64,000 nt of DNA, taken from Escherichia coli (GTDB taxonomy: Bacteria; Pseudomonadota; Gammaproteobacteria; Enterobacterales; Enterobacteriaceae). Positions 2,081 through 44,277 of the stretch are shown here, piece after piece. A program made the translations under genes and the position numbers. Location: NCBI RefSeq assembly GCF_009931435.1, contig NZ_CP043414.1; one strand, given 5' to 3'. Position 1 is the stretch's first letter, and each line of letters opens with the position of its first letter. Below the pieces are notes generated by a model. It made no database searches. It saw nothing but the letters and a program-made list of their open reading frames with translations, and was not told the DNA's origin.

Positions 2081-4480
2081 ATGAAGCTAACCGATGCGGA
2101 TAATGCCGCCGATGGCATTTTTTTCCCCGCCCTTGAGCAAAATATGATGGGCGCGGTGTTAATTAACGAAAATGATGAAGTGATGTTTTTCAACCCCGCC
2201 GCAGAGAAGCTCTGGGGATACAAACGTGAAGAAGTCATTGGCAAAAACATTGATATGCTGATTCCGCGGGATTTGCGTCCTGCGCATCCTGAATATATCC
2301 GTCACAACCGTGAAGGCGGTAAAGCGCGCGTCGAGGGGATGAGTCGGGAGCTGCAGCTGGAGAAAAAAGACGGCAGTAAAATCTGGACCCGTTTTGCGCT
2401 ATCGAAAGTGAGCGCCGAGGGTAAAATTTATTACCTGGCGCTGGTACGTGATGCCAGCGTAGAAATGGCGCAAAAAGAACAGACCCGACAATTGATTATT
2501 GCTGTTGACCATCTCGACCGACCGGTGATTGTCCTCGATCCGGAACGCCATATTGTGCAGTGCAATCGCGCATTTACCGAAATGTTTGGTTACTGCATTA
2601 GCGAAGCCAGCGGTATGCAGCCCGATACACTCCTGAACATTCCAGAATTCCCTGCTGATAACCGCATTCGTTTACAACAGTTGCTATGGAAAACCGCCCG
2701 CGATCAGGACGAATTTCTGCTGTTGACGCGCACCGGTGAAAAAATCTGGATCAAAGCCTCTATCAGCCCGGTCTATGATGTGCTCGCACATCTGCAGAAC
2801 CTGGTAATGACTTTCTCGGATATCACCGAAGAACGGCAAATCCGCCAGCTTGAAGGCAATATTCTCGCCGCCATGTGCAGCAGCCCGCCATTTCATGAAA
2901 TGGGGGAAATCATTTGTCGTAACATCGAATCTGTTCTCAACGAATCGCATGTTTCGCTGTTCGCGCTGCGCAACGGGATGCCGATACACTGGGCGTCATC
3001 TTCGCACGGTACAGAAGTTCAAAATGCGCAAAGCTGGTCAGCGACCATTCGTCAGCGTGATGGCGCACCGGCGGGGATCCTGCAAATTAAAACCTCGTCA
3101 GGAGCAGAAACCAGCGCCTTTATCGAACGTGTGGCAGATATCAGCCAGCATATGGCCGCGCTGGCGCTGGAACAGGAAAAAAGCCGTCAGCATATTGAAC
3201 AACTCATCCAATTTGATCCGATGACCGGTCTGCCAAATCGCAATAACCTGCACAATTACCTCGATGACCTGGTCGACAAAGCCGTCTCTCCGGTGGTCTA
3301 TCTCATCGGTGTTGACCATATTCAGGATGTGATTGATAGCCTTGGCTATGCGTGGGCCGATCAGGCATTGCTGGAAGTGGTCAATCGCTTTCGTGAAAAA
3401 CTCAAACCGGATCAGTATCTCTGTCGTATCGAAGGTACGCAGTTTGTCCTCGTGAGCCTGGAAAACGACGTCAGTAACATTACCCAAATCGCCGATGAGC
3501 TACGGAATGTGGTCAGCAAGCCGATAATGATTGACGATAAACCATTCCCGCTCACCTTGAGCATTGGCATCAGCTACGACGTGGGTAAAAACCGCGATTA
3601 CCTGCTCTCCACTGCTCACAATGCAATGGATTTTATTCGCAAAAATGGCGGTAACGGCTGGCAGTTCTTCAGCCCGGTGATGAACGAAATGGTGAAAGAA
3701 CGATTGATATTAGGCGCAGCGCTGAAAGAAGCGATTAGCAATAACCAACTGAAACTGGTTTACCAACCACAAATCTTCGCAGAAACGGGTGAACTGTATG
3801 GTATCGAAGCCCTTGCTCGCTGGCACGATCCTCTGCATGGTCATGTGCCCCCTTCACGGTTTATTCCTCTCGCAGAAGAGATTGGCGAAATCGAAAATAT
3901 TGGGCGCTGGGTCATCGCGGAAGCTTGCCGTCAGTTAGCAGAATGGCGTAGCCAGAATATTCATATTCCAGCGTTATCCGTTAACTTGTCTGCGCTGCAC
4001 TTCCGCAGTAATCAGCTGCCTAATCAGGTGTCTGATGCAATGCAAGTCTGGGGCATTGACGGCCACCAGCTAACGGTGGAAATCACCGAAAGCATGATGA
4101 TGGAACACGATACGGAAATTTTTAAGCGCATCCAGATCCTGCGCGATATGGGCGTGGGTTTATCGGTAGATGATTTTGGCACGGGCTTTTCCGGATTATC
4201 CCGCTTAGTCAGTCTTCCGGTAACGGAAATCAAAATTGACAAAAGTTTTGTTGATCGTTGTCTGACGGAAAAACGCATCCTTGCCTTACTTGAAGCCATT
4301 ACCAGCATTGGGCAAAGCCTCAATTTAACCGTCGTGGCGGAAGGCGTCGAAACCAAAGAGCAATTTGAGATGCTACGTAAGATCCACTGTCGCGTTATTC
4401 AGGGATATTTCTTTTCCCGGCCCCTTCCCGCCGAAGAAATTCCAGGCTGGATGAGCAGCGTGTTACCGCTGAAAATCTGA
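2081..4480 (+). CDS. dosP: c-di-GMP phosphodiesterase DosP (PAS heme sensor + GGDEF-like + EAL)
   Basis: Track ORF 2057-4480; start placed at internal ATG 2081 (MKLTDADNA...) giving 799 aa; EAL region (QPQIFAETGELYGIEALARW) in translation. Confidence 0.92.
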   Translation: MKLTDADNAADGIFFPALEQNMMGAVLINENDEVMFFNPAAEKLWGYKREEVIGKNIDMLIPRDLRPAHPEYIRHNREGGKARVEGMSRELQLEKKDGSKIWTRFALSKVSAEGKIYYLALVRDASVEMAQKEQTRQLIIAVDHLDRPVIVLDPERHIVQCNRAFTEMFGYCISEASGMQPDTLLNIPEFPADNRIRLQQLLWKTARDQDEFLLLTRTGEKIWIKASISPVYDVLAHLQNLVMTFSDITEERQIRQLEGNILAAMCSSPPFHEMGEIICRNIESVLNESHVSLFALRNGMPIHWASSSHGTEVQNAQSWSATIRQRDGAPAGILQIKTSSGAETSAFIERVADISQHMAALALEQEKSRQHIEQLIQFDPMTGLPNRNNLHNYLDDLVDKAVSPVVYLIGVDHIQDVIDSLGYAWADQALLEVVNRFREKLKPDQYLCRIEGTQFVLVSLENDVSNITQIADELRNVVSKPIMIDDKPFPLTLSIGISYDVGKNRDYLLSTAHNAMDFIRKNGGNGWQFFSPVMNEMVKERLILGAALKEAISNNQLKLVYQPQIFAETGELYGIEALARWHDPLHGHVPPSRFIPLAEEIGEIENIGRWVIAEACRQLAEWRSQNIHIPALSVNLSALHFRSNQLPNQVSDAMQVWGIDGHQLTVEITESMMMEHDTEIFKRIQILRDMGVGLSVDDFGTGFSGLSRLVSLPVTEIKIDKSFVDRCLTEKRILALLEAITSIGQSLNLTVVAEGVETKEQFEMLRKIHCRVIQGYFFSRPLPAEEIPGWMSSVLPLKI

Positions 4481-36309: not shown

Positions 36310-36879
36310 GTGAGCCGATTCATCCCCGTCGAATTACACCATGCCAGCCGTCTGTTAAACCACGGCCCCACCGTTTTGATAACAACTTTTGATGAAAAAT
36401 CACAGCGACGTAATGTGATGGCTGCGGCCTGGTCGATGCCGGTGGAGTTTGAACCGCCACGCATAGCGATTGTGGTAGATAAATCGACATGGACCAGGGA
36501 GTTGATTGAGCGTAACGGTAAATTTGGCATCGTTATCCCGGGCGTTGCGGCAACTAACTGGACGTGGGCGGTGGGAAGTGTGTCGGGTCGTGAAGAAGAT
36601 AAATTTAATTGCTATGGCATTCCGGTTGTGAAAGGTCCGGTGCTTGGATTGCCGCTGGTTGAAGAGAAATGTCTGGCATGGATGGAGTGTCGATTGCTAC
36701 CAGCGACTTCTGCGCAAGAAAAATACGATACGCTATTTGGCGAAGTGGTATCGGCAGCGGCAGACGCACGAGTATTTGTCGAAGGCCGCTGGCAGTTTGA
36801 TGATGATAAACTCAATACGTTGCATCATTTAGGTGCTGGCACGTTTGTTACCAGCGGGAAGCGAGTTGCCGCGGGGTAA
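36310..36879 (+). CDS. yddH: Flavin reductase-like protein
   Basis: 189 aa, GTG start. Confidence 0.85.
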   Translation: MSRFIPVELHHASRLLNHGPTVLITTFDEKSQRRNVMAAAWSMPVEFEPPRIAIVVDKSTWTRELIERNGKFGIVIPGVAATNWTWAVGSVSGREEDKFNCYGIPVVKGPVLGLPLVEEKCLAWMECRLLPATSAQEKYDTLFGEVVSAAADARVFVEGRWQFDDDKLNTLHHLGAGTFVTSGKRVAAG

Positions 36880-37270
36880 AGAATCATATGCAGCAACCAA
36901 GTTGCTTAAGCAATGTTTCCATATGAGTTAAAAGATATTTTATCTCACGATTGCATATTTTTAGTGAAGATTAATTTATCCTCACCAACATCATAGTAAT
37001 TGCGTATTATCGCCTCATTGATAAAGCCCTATTTTGTATAAAATGCGCGGGCGGCACTAAAATCGATATGGCTAGAGATCTCTACTAAAAGTAGTCTTGC
37101 GTGATTGGGACAGGTCAAGAAAAAGCAGTTTTGCAGTTTTTTATTTCAGGGCGCAGTTGCGAAAATTGAATACCGTATGGACTAATGTGAGAAAATTCCG
37201 AGGTACGACTGTTTTGATATAGTGGACAATCAAGCGTCTCGAATTAACAATGAATTTCAGGTGCCAAGCC

Positions 37271-37993
37271 TTACAATTTGTAGCATGACGGATATAGGAC
37301 AACATTAGGAAATCGGACAGAAAATTCATTATAATAAAATGACAACTTATCTCTTTCTCTCACGTTCTGTGAAATTTCACAAAAGTATAAACTGAGCCAA
37401 TATGCCTTTATATATAAAAAATACTCATGTTTATTATTATCGGAAAAAGCCAAGATTTGATTAAGGCCATCAAAAATATCTTTCTCATGATCTATATGTA
37501 CTCTTGATGATTTTACAATATCTTTTAATTCGCGGTAAATCTTATTAAATAGCGCAACCGATTCACTGTTATTGAATCCATAGTTGATAAAAAGACATGA
37601 TTTAACATCCGATATTAGCAAGTCGTCATAATTCATCTCTATTTCAGACAATTTCACGATATACTCAGCTATAGTATTACTTTGTAAGGACTCAACAACT
37701 GACAGTAAAACAGATGGATGCAATAATATTTCAAGAAGACTTTTATCGATATTTTTATACACATTTATTGCAAATTCATCATTCGTCCCATCGATGGTGT
37801 CAGATATTGAAAAAAATACATAATCGGGGAGTTCATACCACATATTAATTTTAATAATATCACGACACATATCTTCTAATTGTTGTAATCTATTACCTTT
37901 ATTCATAACAACCTTAATATTATATGGAATCTTTGGCGGAATCTTCTTAACTCTGAGGAATTTTACTAAACCTTTGTTAGAGAAAATATGCAT
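37271..37993 (-). CDS. Hypothetical protein, AT-rich orphan ORF (no recognisable domain)
   Basis: 240 aa ORF, very low GC, no signal peptide or motif recognised; directly downstream of ISAs1 remnant. Confidence 0.45.
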   Translation of the reverse strand: MHIFSNKGLVKFLRVKKIPPKIPYNIKVVMNKGNRLQQLEDMCRDIIKINMWYELPDYVFFSISDTIDGTNDEFAINVYKNIDKSLLEILLHPSVLLSVVESLQSNTIAEYIVKLSEIEMNYDDLLISDVKSCLFINYGFNNSESVALFNKIYRELKDIVKSSRVHIDHEKDIFDGLNQILAFSDNNKHEYFLYIKAYWLSLYFCEISQNVRERDKLSFYYNEFSVRFPNVVLYPSCYKL

Positions 37994-38069
37994 ATCACTG
38001 ACAGCGTGTTATTAATTCACTCTGGTGTTATATAACAAAAATATCCCCTCCTGTTTTCACCTCTTTGTA

Positions 38070-39280
38070 TTCATGATAGTTAAGGGGAGTGCTAACTTAA
38101 TATAAACACCCAGGGCAAGATTACGAAAGCCCGCTCCCCGCAAGGACTGACGCCAGATACTTTCTGTCCATGGTTGCTTTTCGCATCTTACGTCTTAACC
38201 CTGCTTGAATACCTCATCATTCGTCAAAATATTAATAGCGATGTGCCGTATCCCTGAAAATAATTCTGCTGCATTTCCTCTTCTTATTTTGCAGTCGTCT
38301 TCATTCATTACCACGTCCAGACGCCAGTGCAGCTTATTCTCCACGTGCCAGTGGTTTCGGATTGCTGTGGCGAACTTCTCTGCGGTTAAATCAGCAGAAC
38401 TGATATAATATCTGACCGTCATTTCTGGCTCTTTCTTTTGTTCTGCTATTATTGACCGAAAGGAGACTGCCACGCATAATTTCTTCAGACCTTTCCATTC
38501 AAACGTGAAATCAATAAGTTCATCAGGGACATCGCAAACAATGTGAAGACGGATTTCTTCTCTGCCGTGACTCTTTTCACTAATTGCGTAACTGTCATGC
38601 TCTGGATTATTTAATTCTTTCAGCGGAAATTTTTCCTCGAAGCCTTTATTTAGCCGCCCCTGGTTTCCTTTTACAGCGAATAAATAATCACCTCCCTGTT
38701 TTTGTATCTTCTCTGCAATATCTTTCTGGCAACCCATCGCATCAGTTGTGATGATTTTTCCTTTAATATCCAGCATGTTAAGAAGTTCTGGGATAGCTGT
38801 AATCTCATTGGATTTCTCATCCGTCTTGATCTGTCCGATGACCAGACTGTGCATTGTTGAGAACGCACTAATGACATGAATCGCTCCCCTGCGGCGACTC
38901 TTGTCATAAGAGTGCCGGAGCGTTTTTCCATCAATTGCAATGACGTCTTTATCATCTGAAGAATGGCAGTCACGCATCCAGTTAATAAAGCACTCATGAA
39001 ATTTTGCAGGACTGATACAGGATACAACTTTGGCAATGATATCGTGAACAGGAATACCATTTTCAAAATCACCATATCACTTCAAAAAATCGAGATGTGT
39101 TTCCCAAAAATTCGCTATATTTTCCTATCCTTCTGCACCAAAAATAACGGCACAAATAGCCAACAGTAGAATATCCGATAATTTATGCTCCACTTTCCAG
39201 GCTTGTCTGTAATCGGGGATAACAGAAATATGTTCCATCAATTTTTTAAGTACCATTTTGTTCTCCTTAATTATGTAAGG
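38070..39280 (-). mobile_element. ISAs1-family (H-repeat) insertion sequence, boundaries approximate
   Basis: Transposase-homologous sequence flanked by imperfect inverted repeats (about 38073-38087 atgatagttaagggg vs 39263-39277 ctccttaattatgta). Confidence 0.5.
38195..39238 (-). pseudogene. ISAs1-family transposase (H-repeat-associated protein) inactivated by two in-frame nonsense codons
   Basis: Hand translation from ATG 39238: [37 protein letters not shown]-stop-ENIANFWETHLDFLK-stop-YGDFENG..., continuing in frame into track ORF 38195-38977 ([11 protein letters not shown]...). Confidence 0.8.
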
Positions 39281-39562
39281 AGTATTTGATCATGTATAAG
39301 CAATAAAAAACAGCTTCAGGTAATGAGGAATATCTCAATTTTTAAACATAAAATGCGAATTGTTTAGTACAAAAAGTGTACTTCTGATGATCTTTCCCTG
39401 CCTATCAGCCCCCCTGCTGAACCCTGCACAATATCCAGTCCCTTGCGGGTCATGTCACCCTGCCGCGCCGCCGGTTTTCCGCTCATGGTTTATTCCTTTT
39501 CTTTTACCTTACATGTCCATACAAATAGTTACCTATACTGTCTTTGAATATTGCCCTACCAT

Positions 39563-40012
39563 TTAAAGCCCACCTATTTCTTGCGACAGAAAAGGGATTT
39601 CTTTTTTAATCCAATCTATCATTTCATTTTTTTCAAAACATACGTTAATGCCATTCACACTGCCACATTCACCAAAACCATCAAAATAAATTTCACATTT
39701 ATTATTTTTATTCGAAACAATGTCAACCCCCCATCTTATATCGTTATTCTCCTCCTTCCTGAAATACTTCATTTGCAATAAATCAATTATCTCACCAGCA
39801 TAAAAATCGCTAACCCCATTCACCACCACTTTATGTTTGTATATTCTCTTGAGACCTTCCTTGCTAAGCGGGGTTAAGGTGGTAACATATGCTGGAAGAT
39901 TAATTATTTCTATCGTTTTCACACTATCTATTCCACACAATTCATTCACTCGCCCCATCCCCAATACCGAAGCAGAAAATAGAGACAATAAAACCATCAA
40001 ATATTTCATCAT
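39563..40012 (-). CDS. Candidate Rhs immunity protein with N-terminal signal peptide
   Basis: 149 aa; starts 12 nt after Rhs stop; hydrophobic N-terminus MMKYLMVLLSLFSASVLG; AT-rich. Confidence 0.5.
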   Translation of the reverse strand: MMKYLMVLLSLFSASVLGMGRVNELCGIDSVKTIEIINLPAYVTTLTPLSKEGLKRIYKHKVVVNGVSDFYAGEIIDLLQMKYFRKEENNDIRWGVDIVSNKNNKCEIYFDGFGECGSVNGINVCFEKNEMIDWIKKEIPFLSQEIGGL

Positions 40013-40024
40013 AAAAAAATCTCA

Positions 40025-43000
40025 CTATTCTGGCGTGCCATTTATTGTTGCCGTCTGCGTTGGTGTATTCACACGATAATACACTCCATTATATGCTGTT
40101 CTGGTACACTCACCTAAAGTTTTCGCCGCATGCTGTTCAATTAAAGTGATAACTCTCGCCTCTTCTTTATTTTTATATTGTTCATCCGCACGTCTCACAA
40201 GCCCCATATAACCATCCTTATCAATAAGATATAAGTGCGCATGAGCAAACTCATGCCCCAAACCTAATGCAGGTGATTGTGATTTCGATTTTAAATCAGT
40301 TGAACAAAATAAAGCCGCCTTACCATTCCAATATATAGTCATTTTATCCGGGTCAAATCTAACGTCGGTTTCATCAATATACTCTATCTTTATGGTTTCT
40401 TCAGAGCTTGATAAAAAATCTATAGCTTCTTTCATTCGTGAATCTTGTTTTAAATACTCAACAGCCTGATTAAAATCACTTGGATCACCGTTAACATGGA
40501 ATTTTAAACCCAAAGAATCTATAAACCGAACAGGGTTTAATGGATATTTATACAGATTCCATTCACCTCTTAGCCCGATTGGATCCTGGGTGATATACCT
40601 CCCCTGTAGCGGGTCATAGTACCGGTTCCGGTTATAATACAGCCCCGACTCCTCATCGTGTTGCTGCCCTGGCAGACGGTACGGCTGGTGCATGTGATGC
40701 GAGTTTTCCTCATTCAGCAGGTTTCCCCACTCATCATACTCCCCGCTCCACGCCGTATTGCCGTCTTCGCTGATGAGCGCCAGCGGCAGGCCCCGGTGGT
40801 CGCAGTGATACAGATGCAGCGTGCGTGCCGGTGTGTATTCCGGCTCCACCTGTCTGGCCAGTTGCTCCACCGTCAGCCCGCACTGCGCAAGCCACGCCCG
40901 GCTTTCACTGCTCACGCGGTCTGCCCGGATTTCTTCCTCCAGCCTGTCCAGCATCCTCACAAGTTCTGCCGGGAACACCACACCGTGCCCGTCCTCACTC
41001 CCTTCCTGCTGCAGCTTCTCCGCCAGGCTCCGGCGCTGCGCTTTCTCCCGCTCGCCGTTCTCTGTTTCGATGCGGATGAGCGGCGTGAAGCTCCCAGGCT
41101 GGTAGACCGTCTGGATACGTGTGGTGTCGGTCTGTACCGTCGTCAGCCGGTCACCGTCCCACCCGTACCACGTTACCTCCGGTTTACGCGACAGCGACAT
41201 CCACCCCGTCAGGTCACGCTCCCGCCGCCATACCCGTTTCGCCATTCGCCGTCCCAGCGGGTCGTAGAGGTAGCGGCTCTCGACCAGTGGCTCGCCATGC
41301 TGTATCCGCGTGTAGAACACCAGGCGTGCTGGCTGTCGTAGTGGTAGTGGTGGGTCCGCTCGTCGTCCGTCCGTATCACACCCGCCGGGATGCGGTCCGT
41401 CTTCTCCGTCAGCCTGCCGTATTCATCGTGGCGGTAGACATAGTGCGCATCCTCCGCGATGCGGTTATCCGGCCACACTGTGAGTGTACTGTCCGGGTGC
41501 AGCTCCGGGTCCGGCAGCCGGTTGCCCGCCGGGTCCGTGGCATACGGGATGCGGATGTCCAGGTCCGGTGCGAGGGTGCGCACGCTCTCCAGCCTGCCCG
41601 TGGCACTGTAGCCGTATTCCCGCGTCTGTCGCGGGCCGCTGATGCGCACCAGGTCGCCGTTGTCATTCCACCCGTAGTCACGGTCATACACCAGGCTGTT
41701 CAGGTGCTGACTCTGTAACTGACCTGCGGGGGTGTATGTGCTGGTCAGTTCGTATGCGGAATTACTGCCTGCCATGCTGCCGAAGCTGCGCACCGTCTCA
41801 CGGTGCAGCCTGTCCCGCGTATACTCGACCAGCGGCGTCCCGCCCAGCTTCATTCCCGCCAGGTAACCGCTGCCATACGTCAGCCACTCCACCGGCGGCA
41901 GGCTGTCCGGCGTGACGCGGTTTGCCAGCCCCTGTTCGTTGTATGCCTGTTTCGTCTCATGCTGCCAGAGCAGTTCCTCCGTCTCCGGGTTATGCACCGT
42001 CTGGCGCTCGCCAGTCAGACGGCCCTTGTCGTCATAGCCATAGTGGACGGCAACACGGTGGCCTTCGCTCAGGTGGCTGATTTCTCTCAGCCAGCCGTGG
42101 CCATCATACTGCCACTGCTCTGCCGGTTCGCCGTTCACCGTGCGGTGCGTGATGCGGTCCGATTCGTCGTAGTGCCAGAGGGTGACAAGCCCCTCATCTT
42201 CACTCTGCGTGAGTTTTCCGGTCAGGTCATAGTGGTAACGTTGCGTCCGCCCGTCAAAGCCGCGCTGCTGTACCAGCCGGTCCAGCGCATCGTAGGTAAA
42301 CTCACTTCGGCTGCCGTTCTCGTTAGTCAGCGTGGTGACACGTCCGGCAGCATCATACTCCATACTGCGCGTCAGCCCGCCCTGCGTGGTACTGACCGCC
42401 TTTCCCCACGCATCGTACTGTGTCTCACTCCGGTTGCCATCCGGGGTGATGACGGCGGTCAGGTCGCCTGCGGCGTTGTACTCATACTGCGTTTCACGGC
42501 CCTGTGCGTCTTTCACCGAGGTTAACCGGCCACGGTTGTCATAGCGGCGGTAAAGGCTGATACCTTCCTCGCGGTGAACCGCCGTCATCTGGCCGAAGCG
42601 GTCGTATTCATAGCGGGTCTGGTAGCCCGAGCAGTCGGTGAAGGCCAGCAACTGCCCGTAGCGGCTCCAGGTCATCTGCCGGGTGCTGCCCGTCGCATCC
42701 GTTGTCGTCGCCGGTAACTCACTGTGCGGATTATCATAAGCATACCGGATGACGTCCCCGCTGCGCGATGTCTCCGTTACCAGCCTGTCCCGCTCATCAT
42801 ACGCCCGGCGGCTCTCCAGCCCGTCCGGGGACACCACCGCCGTTAACTGGTTCCCGTCGTTATAGTAAAATTTCGTCTCCCGCCCGTCCGGCGTGGTGAT
42901 ATCCGTGATATCGCCGGACACCACATTCAGGCCGTACTCTGTCCGCCGTCCCGCCGCGTCCGTCTGTGCCGTGAGCCTTCCTGCCGCGTCATACCCGCTG

Positions 43001-44277
43001 TGCGTGACGCTGCCGTCCGCCAGTTCTTTTTTCACCACCCGCTTCAGCCCGGCCCCGCCTTCTGTATGCAGCACCTCTCGCCGGTTCAGGCTGTCCGTGA
43101 TGGTGATGCGGTCCTGCTCATAAAGATAGCGATAGCTTAACCCTGCCGGGTTCAGCTGCTCCACCACCCGCCCGGTATCGTCGTAGCGGTAGCGCATCTC
43201 CGGCCTTCCCGCATAACGGTGCCCCACCATCCGGCCCGGGTGCTGCGCGTCATACGTGAAAGCGCGCACCTGCGTATTGCTGCGGTCATATACCGCCAGC
43301 AGTTCACCGGCTTCCGTATACGTGTAACGCGCCAGTGGCGCACCGGGCAGATTCTCCGGGTATGCCGGGTCGTGCATCAGCCACACCGCCGAAAGACGGA
43401 TGCCCCTGTCGGGGCCGTATTCCGTACCGGGCAGTGTGTCGGGGAACGCTGAGGCTGAGAGAGGGCGGGAACGGTCAGAAGAAGATAGCGAAGAGGTGCG
43501 GGCCTCTTCCGCACGCTGCGCCTGCGTGGTCAGCACCAGACGGAACTTCCGCCCGGCACCGTCCGTCACGCTGGTGATTTCCCCAGCCAGGTCACCGGCG
43601 GCCTCACGCCGGTACGTCAGCGTCCGCCCGAAGCGGTCCGCCAGCCCGGTAAGCACCCGGTACGGCGGCAGCGGCGCTGGCAGTACGTCCTCAGCACCCG
43701 GCACCCGCTCACTCCACCCCAGTATCCACCACGACCCCTGTGCGCTGTTGGTCGCCAGGTAAAGATGCGGGCTTAACCGGATATCCGGCGGCAGCGCCCC
43801 CCACAGTCGCGCCAGCGTGTGGCCGTCCGGCTGCGCTGCCTTACCACCGCGCACCAGCCACATTGACTCGCTGCGGCTGTACACCGCCTCCCCCGGCAGC
43901 AGCGGCTCAAAGTGAATGCTCCGCCCGCCGTTGTCGTTGAGTATCAGTGCGTCATCACGTAGCTGTAAGCGGATATCCGAAGGCGCTTTCCAGCCGGGGC
44001 CGAAAACGCCCACCGGGGCAGGCGTCCTCGTCCGGTAGCTGCTGTAGGTGCGGGAGAGAATGAACGGCAGCGGGCCGGGCAGCGCAAGGTCCGTCTCGCC
44101 GGGCAGCACCTTCGCCCCCAGCAGCGGATTTACCGGGTTGCCCGAAGTCATCCCGCCCGGACACACCGAGCACGCCACGCCGGTGGGCGCGCCAATTCTT
44201 ACACCTGCCGAACCCTGGACAATGGGACCGCCATACTGAGTCATATCTCCCTGACGCGCTGCTGGTTTTCCGCTCAT
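40025..44277 (-). CDS. Rhs-family polymorphic toxin (PAAR-like N-terminus, YD-repeat shell, variable C-terminal tip), interrupted by an apparent -1 frameshift near 41325
   Basis: Track ORFs 41209-44277 (1022 aa) and 40025-41320 (431 aa) overlap in different frames; YD repeats throughout; DPIGL core-end motif; C-terminal tip contains HEFAH. Confidence 0.85.

Follow-up and report, generated by a model that had tools for sequence, protein, structure and literature searches.

The window, by which we mean the whole 64-kb stretch of Escherichia coli DNA that was analysed, contains an uninterrupted 240-codon frame on the minus strand (37271..37993; ORF listing) between yddH (36310..36879, +) and a frame-broken ISAs1 element homologous to ydcC. 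GC content in this ORF is 0.29–0.31, compared with ~0.52 in the flanking nar (narV), yddE, nhoA, and yddH genes. The ISAs1-family element (38109..39400, –) is 96.4% identical to K-12 ydcC over 1293 nt, is broken in the window into ORFs of 260, 134, and 43 aa, and has its terminus ~200 bp upstream of the gene discussed here. An earlier sequence-only reading had described a very AT-rich 240-codon ORF between yddH and a degenerate ISAs1 copy, and the composition, the coordinates, and the ydcC homology all bear this description out.

The same reading had placed pptA at this position in K-12, and the gene order in K-12 MG1655 is indeed ydcC–pptA–yddH. On the yddH side, blastn homology to MG1655 extends as far as 36925; toward ydcC/ISAs1, it picks up again at 38109. 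The intervening AT-rich segment (36926..38108; 1183 bp, GC 0.29–0.39), which carries the gene and is absent from K-12, stands in place of 273 bp carrying pptA. A candidate pptA remnant just past yddH, where blastn homology to K-12 runs ~45 nt beyond the stop codon, reaching sequence that forms the pptA 3′ end in K-12, at only ~70% identity, was rejected; pptA used as a query gave no significant match in the window.

A real gene and its probable start codon

The AT-rich ORF is a real gene and not a chance frame. When the 636-nt core was shuffled with its composition preserved, the frame stayed open in 0 of 5000 shuffles, and the ORF is therefore not a chance product of composition. The frame is also intact in 193 E. 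coli genomes. Intact alleles diverge by up to 9% in protein sequence, and synonymous change per site exceeded non-synonymous change in five of five allele comparisons. The corresponding dN/dS values of 0.24–0.60, each of which rests on few substitutions (6–33 per comparison), point to moderate purifying selection.

Translation most likely starts at Met30 of the listed frame (ATG at 37906), giving a coding sequence at 37271..37906 (–) and a product of 211 aa. We assign the gene to this interval on the following evidence. First, homologues in the alignment all begin at the residue equivalent to Met30, and distant homologues cover only 85–88% of the 240-aa query, leaving out the first 29 codons. 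Second, PGAP annotation of other strains has, at the corresponding position, a 636-nt CDS whose 211-aa product is named 'hypothetical protein'. Third, an AAGG Shine-Dalgarno-like motif (37912..37915, –) located 5 nt upstream of the ATG is invariant in six of six aligned loci from four genera, as part of a conserved TAAnAT(T/C)AAGG...ATGAA junction. Finally, the sequence upstream of Met30 contains no in-frame start codon in alleles from two other E. coli genomes (L001 and L002). The 29-codon in-frame extension (37907..37993, –), which makes the mechanical ORF 240 aa long, is probably an untranslated leader. Thus, the open 240-codon frame of the sequence-only reading stands, but a 240-aa product probably does not.

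A promoter scan found no σ70-like promoter upstream on the gene's strand and likewise no terminator-like site. Read-through from the ISAs1 element, which lies on the same strand, could transcribe the gene, and we regard the element as a candidate source only.

On the type VI secretion (T6SS) side of the site, the order in the window is vgrG, a split rhs gene, a 149-aa ORF, an rhs N-terminal fragment, and ISAs1. The main rhs gene (40025..44277, –) consists of two overlapping ORFs in different frames: one of 1022 aa (41209..44277) that matches positions 1–988 of 1261 in NCBIfam RHS_core, and one of 431 aa (40025..41320) that carries the Pfam RHS core motif and the C-terminal tip. The split looks like a frameshift, and the window's Rhs toxin may be a pseudogene. 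The tip (40025..40400, –), which follows a DPxGL motif, has no Pfam or PADLOC family match and carries an HEFAHAH (HExxH-like) motif; directly downstream, the 149-aa ORF (39563..40012, –) has a signal-peptide-like N-terminus (MMKYLMVLLSLFSASVLG). These features suggest a putative periplasm-acting metallopeptidase toxin and its immunity protein. The rhs fragment is an isolated 40-codon ORF (39364..39486, –), flanked by the 149-aa ORF and ISAs1, that matches RHS_core positions 1–30 (E = 1e-10).

A small family encoded directly behind EndoU toxins

The protein encoded by the 240-codon ORF has no Pfam match even at E ≤ 10 and none in NCBIfam. No anti-phage defense family in PADLOC matches it at E ≤ 1; PHROGs returned a single match at E = 0.17. 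These results agree with the earlier statement that no motif could be recognized, and the 16 aligned members of the family described below, each scanned against Pfam, gave nothing at E ≤ 0.001. Sensitive homology searches, which the sequence-only reading had recommended, covered 5.8 billion and 1.84 billion proteins as well as a representative library and uncovered a small enterobacterial family: 18 clusters in a single-sequence search, 27 in a profile search, and 13 in the representative library. Its hosts are E. coli, E. albertii, Shigella, Pseudocitrobacter, Morganella, Proteus, Xenorhabdus, and one metagenome lineage. Identity within the family drops to 27%, and the motifs MWYELP, ESLQS, CLFINY, and HEYFxYxxAYWLSLYF are conserved, as is a surface made up of D39, H63, E72-S73-Q75-S76, and D100.

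In five non-Escherichia lineages, the family member lies directly behind an EndoU toxin gene. In Pseudocitrobacter faecalis (L003), a 135-aa ORF matching PF14436 (EndoU_bacteria; EndoU domain at 3993–4400) lies inside a DUF2169/Tox-PAAR-like cassette; a homologue of 63% identity begins 17 nt behind it, in the same cassette, and an IS3 element comes after the homologue. In Morganella morganii (L012/L014), a homologue of 35% identity starts 14 nt after an ORF that joins a Pyocin_S linker to EndoU (PF14436, E = 1e-14), within an array of orphan modules downstream of VgrG–DUF4123–deaminase; the next module of this array, Pyocin_S–Colicin_D followed by Colicin_immun, has the same layout and is a textbook toxin-immunity pair. 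The ORF directly after the Rhs-EndoU tip of Proteus mirabilis (L019) is a family member that overlaps the tip by 4 nt (36% identity, E = 8e-39), as is the ORF 14 nt after the Rhs-EndoU tip of Proteus sp. FME41 (L020; 27% identity, E = 4e-23). In the metagenome lineage (L010), 9 nt separate an EndoU ORF from a downstream homologue of 27% identity, and RHS fragments come next. Across these loci, the gap between the PF14436 ORF and its partner ranges from –4 to +17 nt, always on the same strand. In addition, an 88-codon ORF located 17 nt upstream of the Shigella flexneri homologue (L008) is a truncated C-terminus of the same EndoU toxin.

The toxin side gives a matching picture. In a profile search, close relatives of the toxin (at least 60% identity) occurred only in Proteus, Xenorhabdus, Morganella, Pseudocitrobacter, and the metagenome lineage, genera in which the immunity family also occurs, and were followed by a sharp fall to Firmicutes EndoU toxins. 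The partner toxins make up a single subfamily with identities of 63–69%, compared with 27–63% among the immunity partners, and are carried on Rhs, PAAR-like, or Pyocin_S-linker T6SS scaffolds. Because the toxin partner is constant, the scaffold varies, and the small gene is immediately adjacent, we regard this small, unnamed family as the likely cognate immunity partner of one EndoU (PF14436) subfamily, with the window copy as an orphan member. Genomic context places the family in the putative immunity class, yet it belongs to no named immunity family.

A confident structure prediction adds to the case for a real gene. An AF2 model of the 211-aa protein (pLDDT 88.4, pTM 0.86) is all-α with 12 helices, and a Foldseek search with this model returned no significant structural relatives outside its own family. 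The N-terminus (MNKGNRLQQLEDMCRD) is hydrophilic and helical, and neither a signal peptide nor a transmembrane segment is evident by direct reading or in the model. From these features, the protein is predicted to reside in the cytoplasm, where an EndoU RNase acts, and the missing signal peptide fits neutralization of a cytoplasmic RNase. By analogy with nuclease toxin-immunity pairs, which have been reviewed for CDI systems (PMC9086364), it would bind the toxin domain one-to-one and block RNase activity or substrate access. In a linker-fused AF2 model of the P. faecalis toxin and its partner, computed from a paired alignment, both domains fold, but with a pTM of only 0.59 the model gives no confident interface.

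Several individual loci depart from the simple pair. The EndoU ORF of P. mirabilis (L019 7001..7408) deviates from the family consensus over its last ~40 residues (…MPSGELWSQVRIMVYLFV…) in a manner that looks like a frameshift; the toxin may be inactive there, and the downstream immunity gene is intact. The E. albertii homologue lies between cusS and a glycosyltransferase operon. Directly upstream of it (L006 7875..7986), tblastn gave a weak, frame-broken trace of an EndoU C-terminus (E = 0.07–0.12), which hints that this orphan arrived with a toxin tip that has since decayed. One homologue, P0025 (L015 7001..8206; 401 aa, 36% identity), is extended by ~70 residues at the N-terminus and ~130 at the C-terminus; it directly follows flgN with no toxin nearby and is an exception to the EndoU pairing.

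Orphan copies in E. coli and their possible role

In the window, the family member stands without a toxin. Tblastn of the EndoU toxin against the 64-kb window gave nothing above noise (the best match, at E = 0.03, falls within a nar gene), and blastn of the toxin gene against 5426 complete E. coli genomes gave no match at the DNA level. Over this search space, the window copy is a putative orphan immunity gene, in support of the sequence-only reading, which had suggested an orphan immunity-like gene or a remnant of displaced cargo. That reading had also advised a check for an rhs-tip fragment upstream; no rhs-tip or toxin fragment was demonstrated there. By eye, the 29-codon extension (…KGLVKFLRVKKIPPKIPYNIKVV) looked like an EndoU C-terminus, and MAFFT aligned the two, but local alignment scores against three toxin 3′ ends did not exceed those of shuffles (z = –1.1 to 1.4), and the idea of a toxin remnant was therefore dropped. 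Conservation here is limited to the short junction that surrounds the Shine-Dalgarno motif.

The gene is present in 237 of the 5426 complete E. coli genomes and absent from ~95%, in keeping with the strain-specific content suggested earlier. In these genomes, it is always single-copy and chromosomal and always at the yncG–yddH site. The frame, whose conservation in related genomes the earlier reading had made a point of, is full-length in 193 of the 237 genomes, and the orphan copies of E. albertii and Shigella are intact as well. In the other ~44 genomes, the ISAs1 terminus found in the window abuts the gene at the equivalent of 37520, leaving its last 83 codons. Because ISAs1 has truncated these copies and most E. 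coli lack the gene altogether, the gene is dispensable.

Its T6SS-side neighbors vary. In place of the arrangement in the window, strain 042 (L002) has PAAR–VgrG–M35 peptidase followed by a 186-aa ORF without a Pfam match, and CP053258 (L017) has no T6SS gene at the site, where small unannotated ORFs alone fill the space from yncG to yddH. From these varied surroundings, we conclude that the gene is not tied to the window's Rhs and is one of a residual group of orphan genes located where the variable yncG–yddH T6SS effector site meets yddH. This refines its earlier placement at the distal end of the Rhs element.

Other small genes share this site. The 186-aa ORF, which may be a second orphan immunity gene, lies ~360 bp upstream of the gene in most gene-carrying E. 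coli (L002 7167..7727 in strain 042; L017 7082..7642); the window lacks it and has the ISAs1 terminus in its place. The yncG–yddH interval of CP053258 (L017 5881..9283), which contains no vgrG, rhs, or IS, has ORFs of 90, 110, 140, 186, 220, and 108 aa; the last of these looks like a GNAT acetyltransferase fragment and sits in a ~460-bp insert absent from the window. In E. coli LCP30S3_I5, in which the gene is ISAs1-truncated, ydcC and the rhs immunity gene are separated by a gene for a SymE-family type I toxin (L021 5549..5878), a further example of variable content at the site.

What might an orphan do in these strains? We propose, tentatively and as one possibility, that E. coli, E. albertii, and Shigella keep the gene as an acquired cross-genus defense against T6SS-delivered EndoU toxins, and that the protein represents a new, all-α mode of EndoU inhibition. 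The toxins, carried by the T6SS on Rhs, PAAR-like, or VgrG/Pyocin_S-linker scaffolds, would come from Proteus, Morganella, Xenorhabdus-like bacteria, and Pseudocitrobacter, and E. coli would never encode them itself. If expressed, the orphan would protect the cell, by analogy with cognate pairs, when competitors of the genera Proteus, Morganella, or Pseudocitrobacter inject such toxins.

A second and rather unlikely explanation is decay: the gene once provided immunity, was left behind when its toxin was lost, is no longer expressed or selected, and has so far escaped deletion. Its patchy distribution, the ISAs1-cut copies, the lack of a promoter-like site upstream, the failure of blastn to find a cognate toxin in 5426 complete E. 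coli genomes, and dN/dS values only moderately below 1 all fit such a history. By contrast, a 211-codon frame at 29% GC has remained intact in 193 genomes and in alleles whose proteins differ by up to 9%, synonymous change outpaces non-synonymous change in every allele comparison, and the orphans of E. albertii and Shigella are also unbroken.

We consider it very improbable that the gene encodes a second or accessory immunity factor for the window's own Rhs toxin with the HEFAHAH tip. It does lie on the same strand and ~2 kb downstream of the rhs tip, but the tip is directly followed by the separate 149-aa ORF, and the rhs N-terminal fragment and ISAs1 intervene before the gene is reached. Moreover, the same gene occurs beside a VgrG–M35 cassette in strain 042 and without any T6SS gene in CP053258, and its constant partner in other genera is an EndoU toxin and not a metallopeptidase. 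Least credible of all is a role outside immunity, for example as an enzyme. The name 'aminopeptidase' does appear in some NCBI and UniRef records of the family, and the best Foldseek matches in the PDB are helical C-terminal domains of M1 aminopeptidases, but these matches are non-significant (E = 0.7, TM 0.26) and amount to generic helical repeats, no peptidase model of Pfam or NCBIfam matches any of the 16 members, and the family alignment lacks HExxH or any other catalytic motif.

Assignment to a putative EndoU immunity family gives a function-level label to a gene called 'hypothetical protein' or, wrongly, 'aminopeptidase' in databases, and adds an unnamed family to the short list of bacterial EndoU toxin partners. 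The toxin-immunity pairs of Proteus, Morganella, and Pseudocitrobacter are ready candidates for T6SS-delivered EndoU, and the E. coli orphans offer a simple case for asking whether such a gene can guard against competitors of another genus. Should cross-genus defense prove true, the protein would inhibit an EndoU nuclease in a structurally new, all-α way. The result changes no general concept.

Comparison with known immunity systems

The family resembles the cognate immunity genes of polymorphic nuclease toxins (RhsI, CdiI, and T6SS immunity proteins). The gene is small, lies on the same strand no more than 17 nt downstream of the toxin stop codon (with a 4-nt overlap in one locus), encodes a protein without a signal peptide, travels with the toxin tip across different scaffolds, and diverges faster than its toxin. 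It differs in that the window copy has no toxin partner.

Several immunity partners of Tox-EndoU domains have been described, including Imm-SUKH (SMI1_KNR4), Imm-SuFu, and Imm28 (Zhang et al., 2012; PMC3482391), and in Salmonella the partner of an Rhs-EndoU effector is a MafI-type gene (PMC10469887). Four experimentally verified antibacterial EndoU toxins have been listed, none as T6SS-delivered (PMC9990079). The SUKH/SMI1_KNR4, SuFu, Imm28, and MafI proteins and CdiI-STECO31 share with our family a toxin superfamily (PF14436, BECR fold) and a presumed role. CdiI-STECO31 (PDB 5HKQ) is α/β by description (PMC9086364), whereas the protein studied here is predicted to be all-α. We found no sequence relationship to the named EndoU immunity families, either in Pfam (0 of 16 members) or in the PDB by sequence or profile; the predicted fold likewise matches none of them, and the partner EndoU toxins matched no PDB chain by sequence profile.

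The setting in E. coli has clear precedents. Orphan immunity genes and poly-immunity loci at T6SS and Rhs sites are an established concept, and the window copy conforms to it as a member of an immunity family that lacks its toxin and is located distally in a variable effector locus, with an IS and small unannotated ORFs as neighbors. It departs from this pattern in that the matching toxin was found nowhere in the sample of 5426 E. coli genomes, and any benefit of the orphan would therefore be against other genera. Acquired interbacterial defense islands have been described in gut Bacteroides, and cross-genus defense by the E. coli orphan would be analogous.
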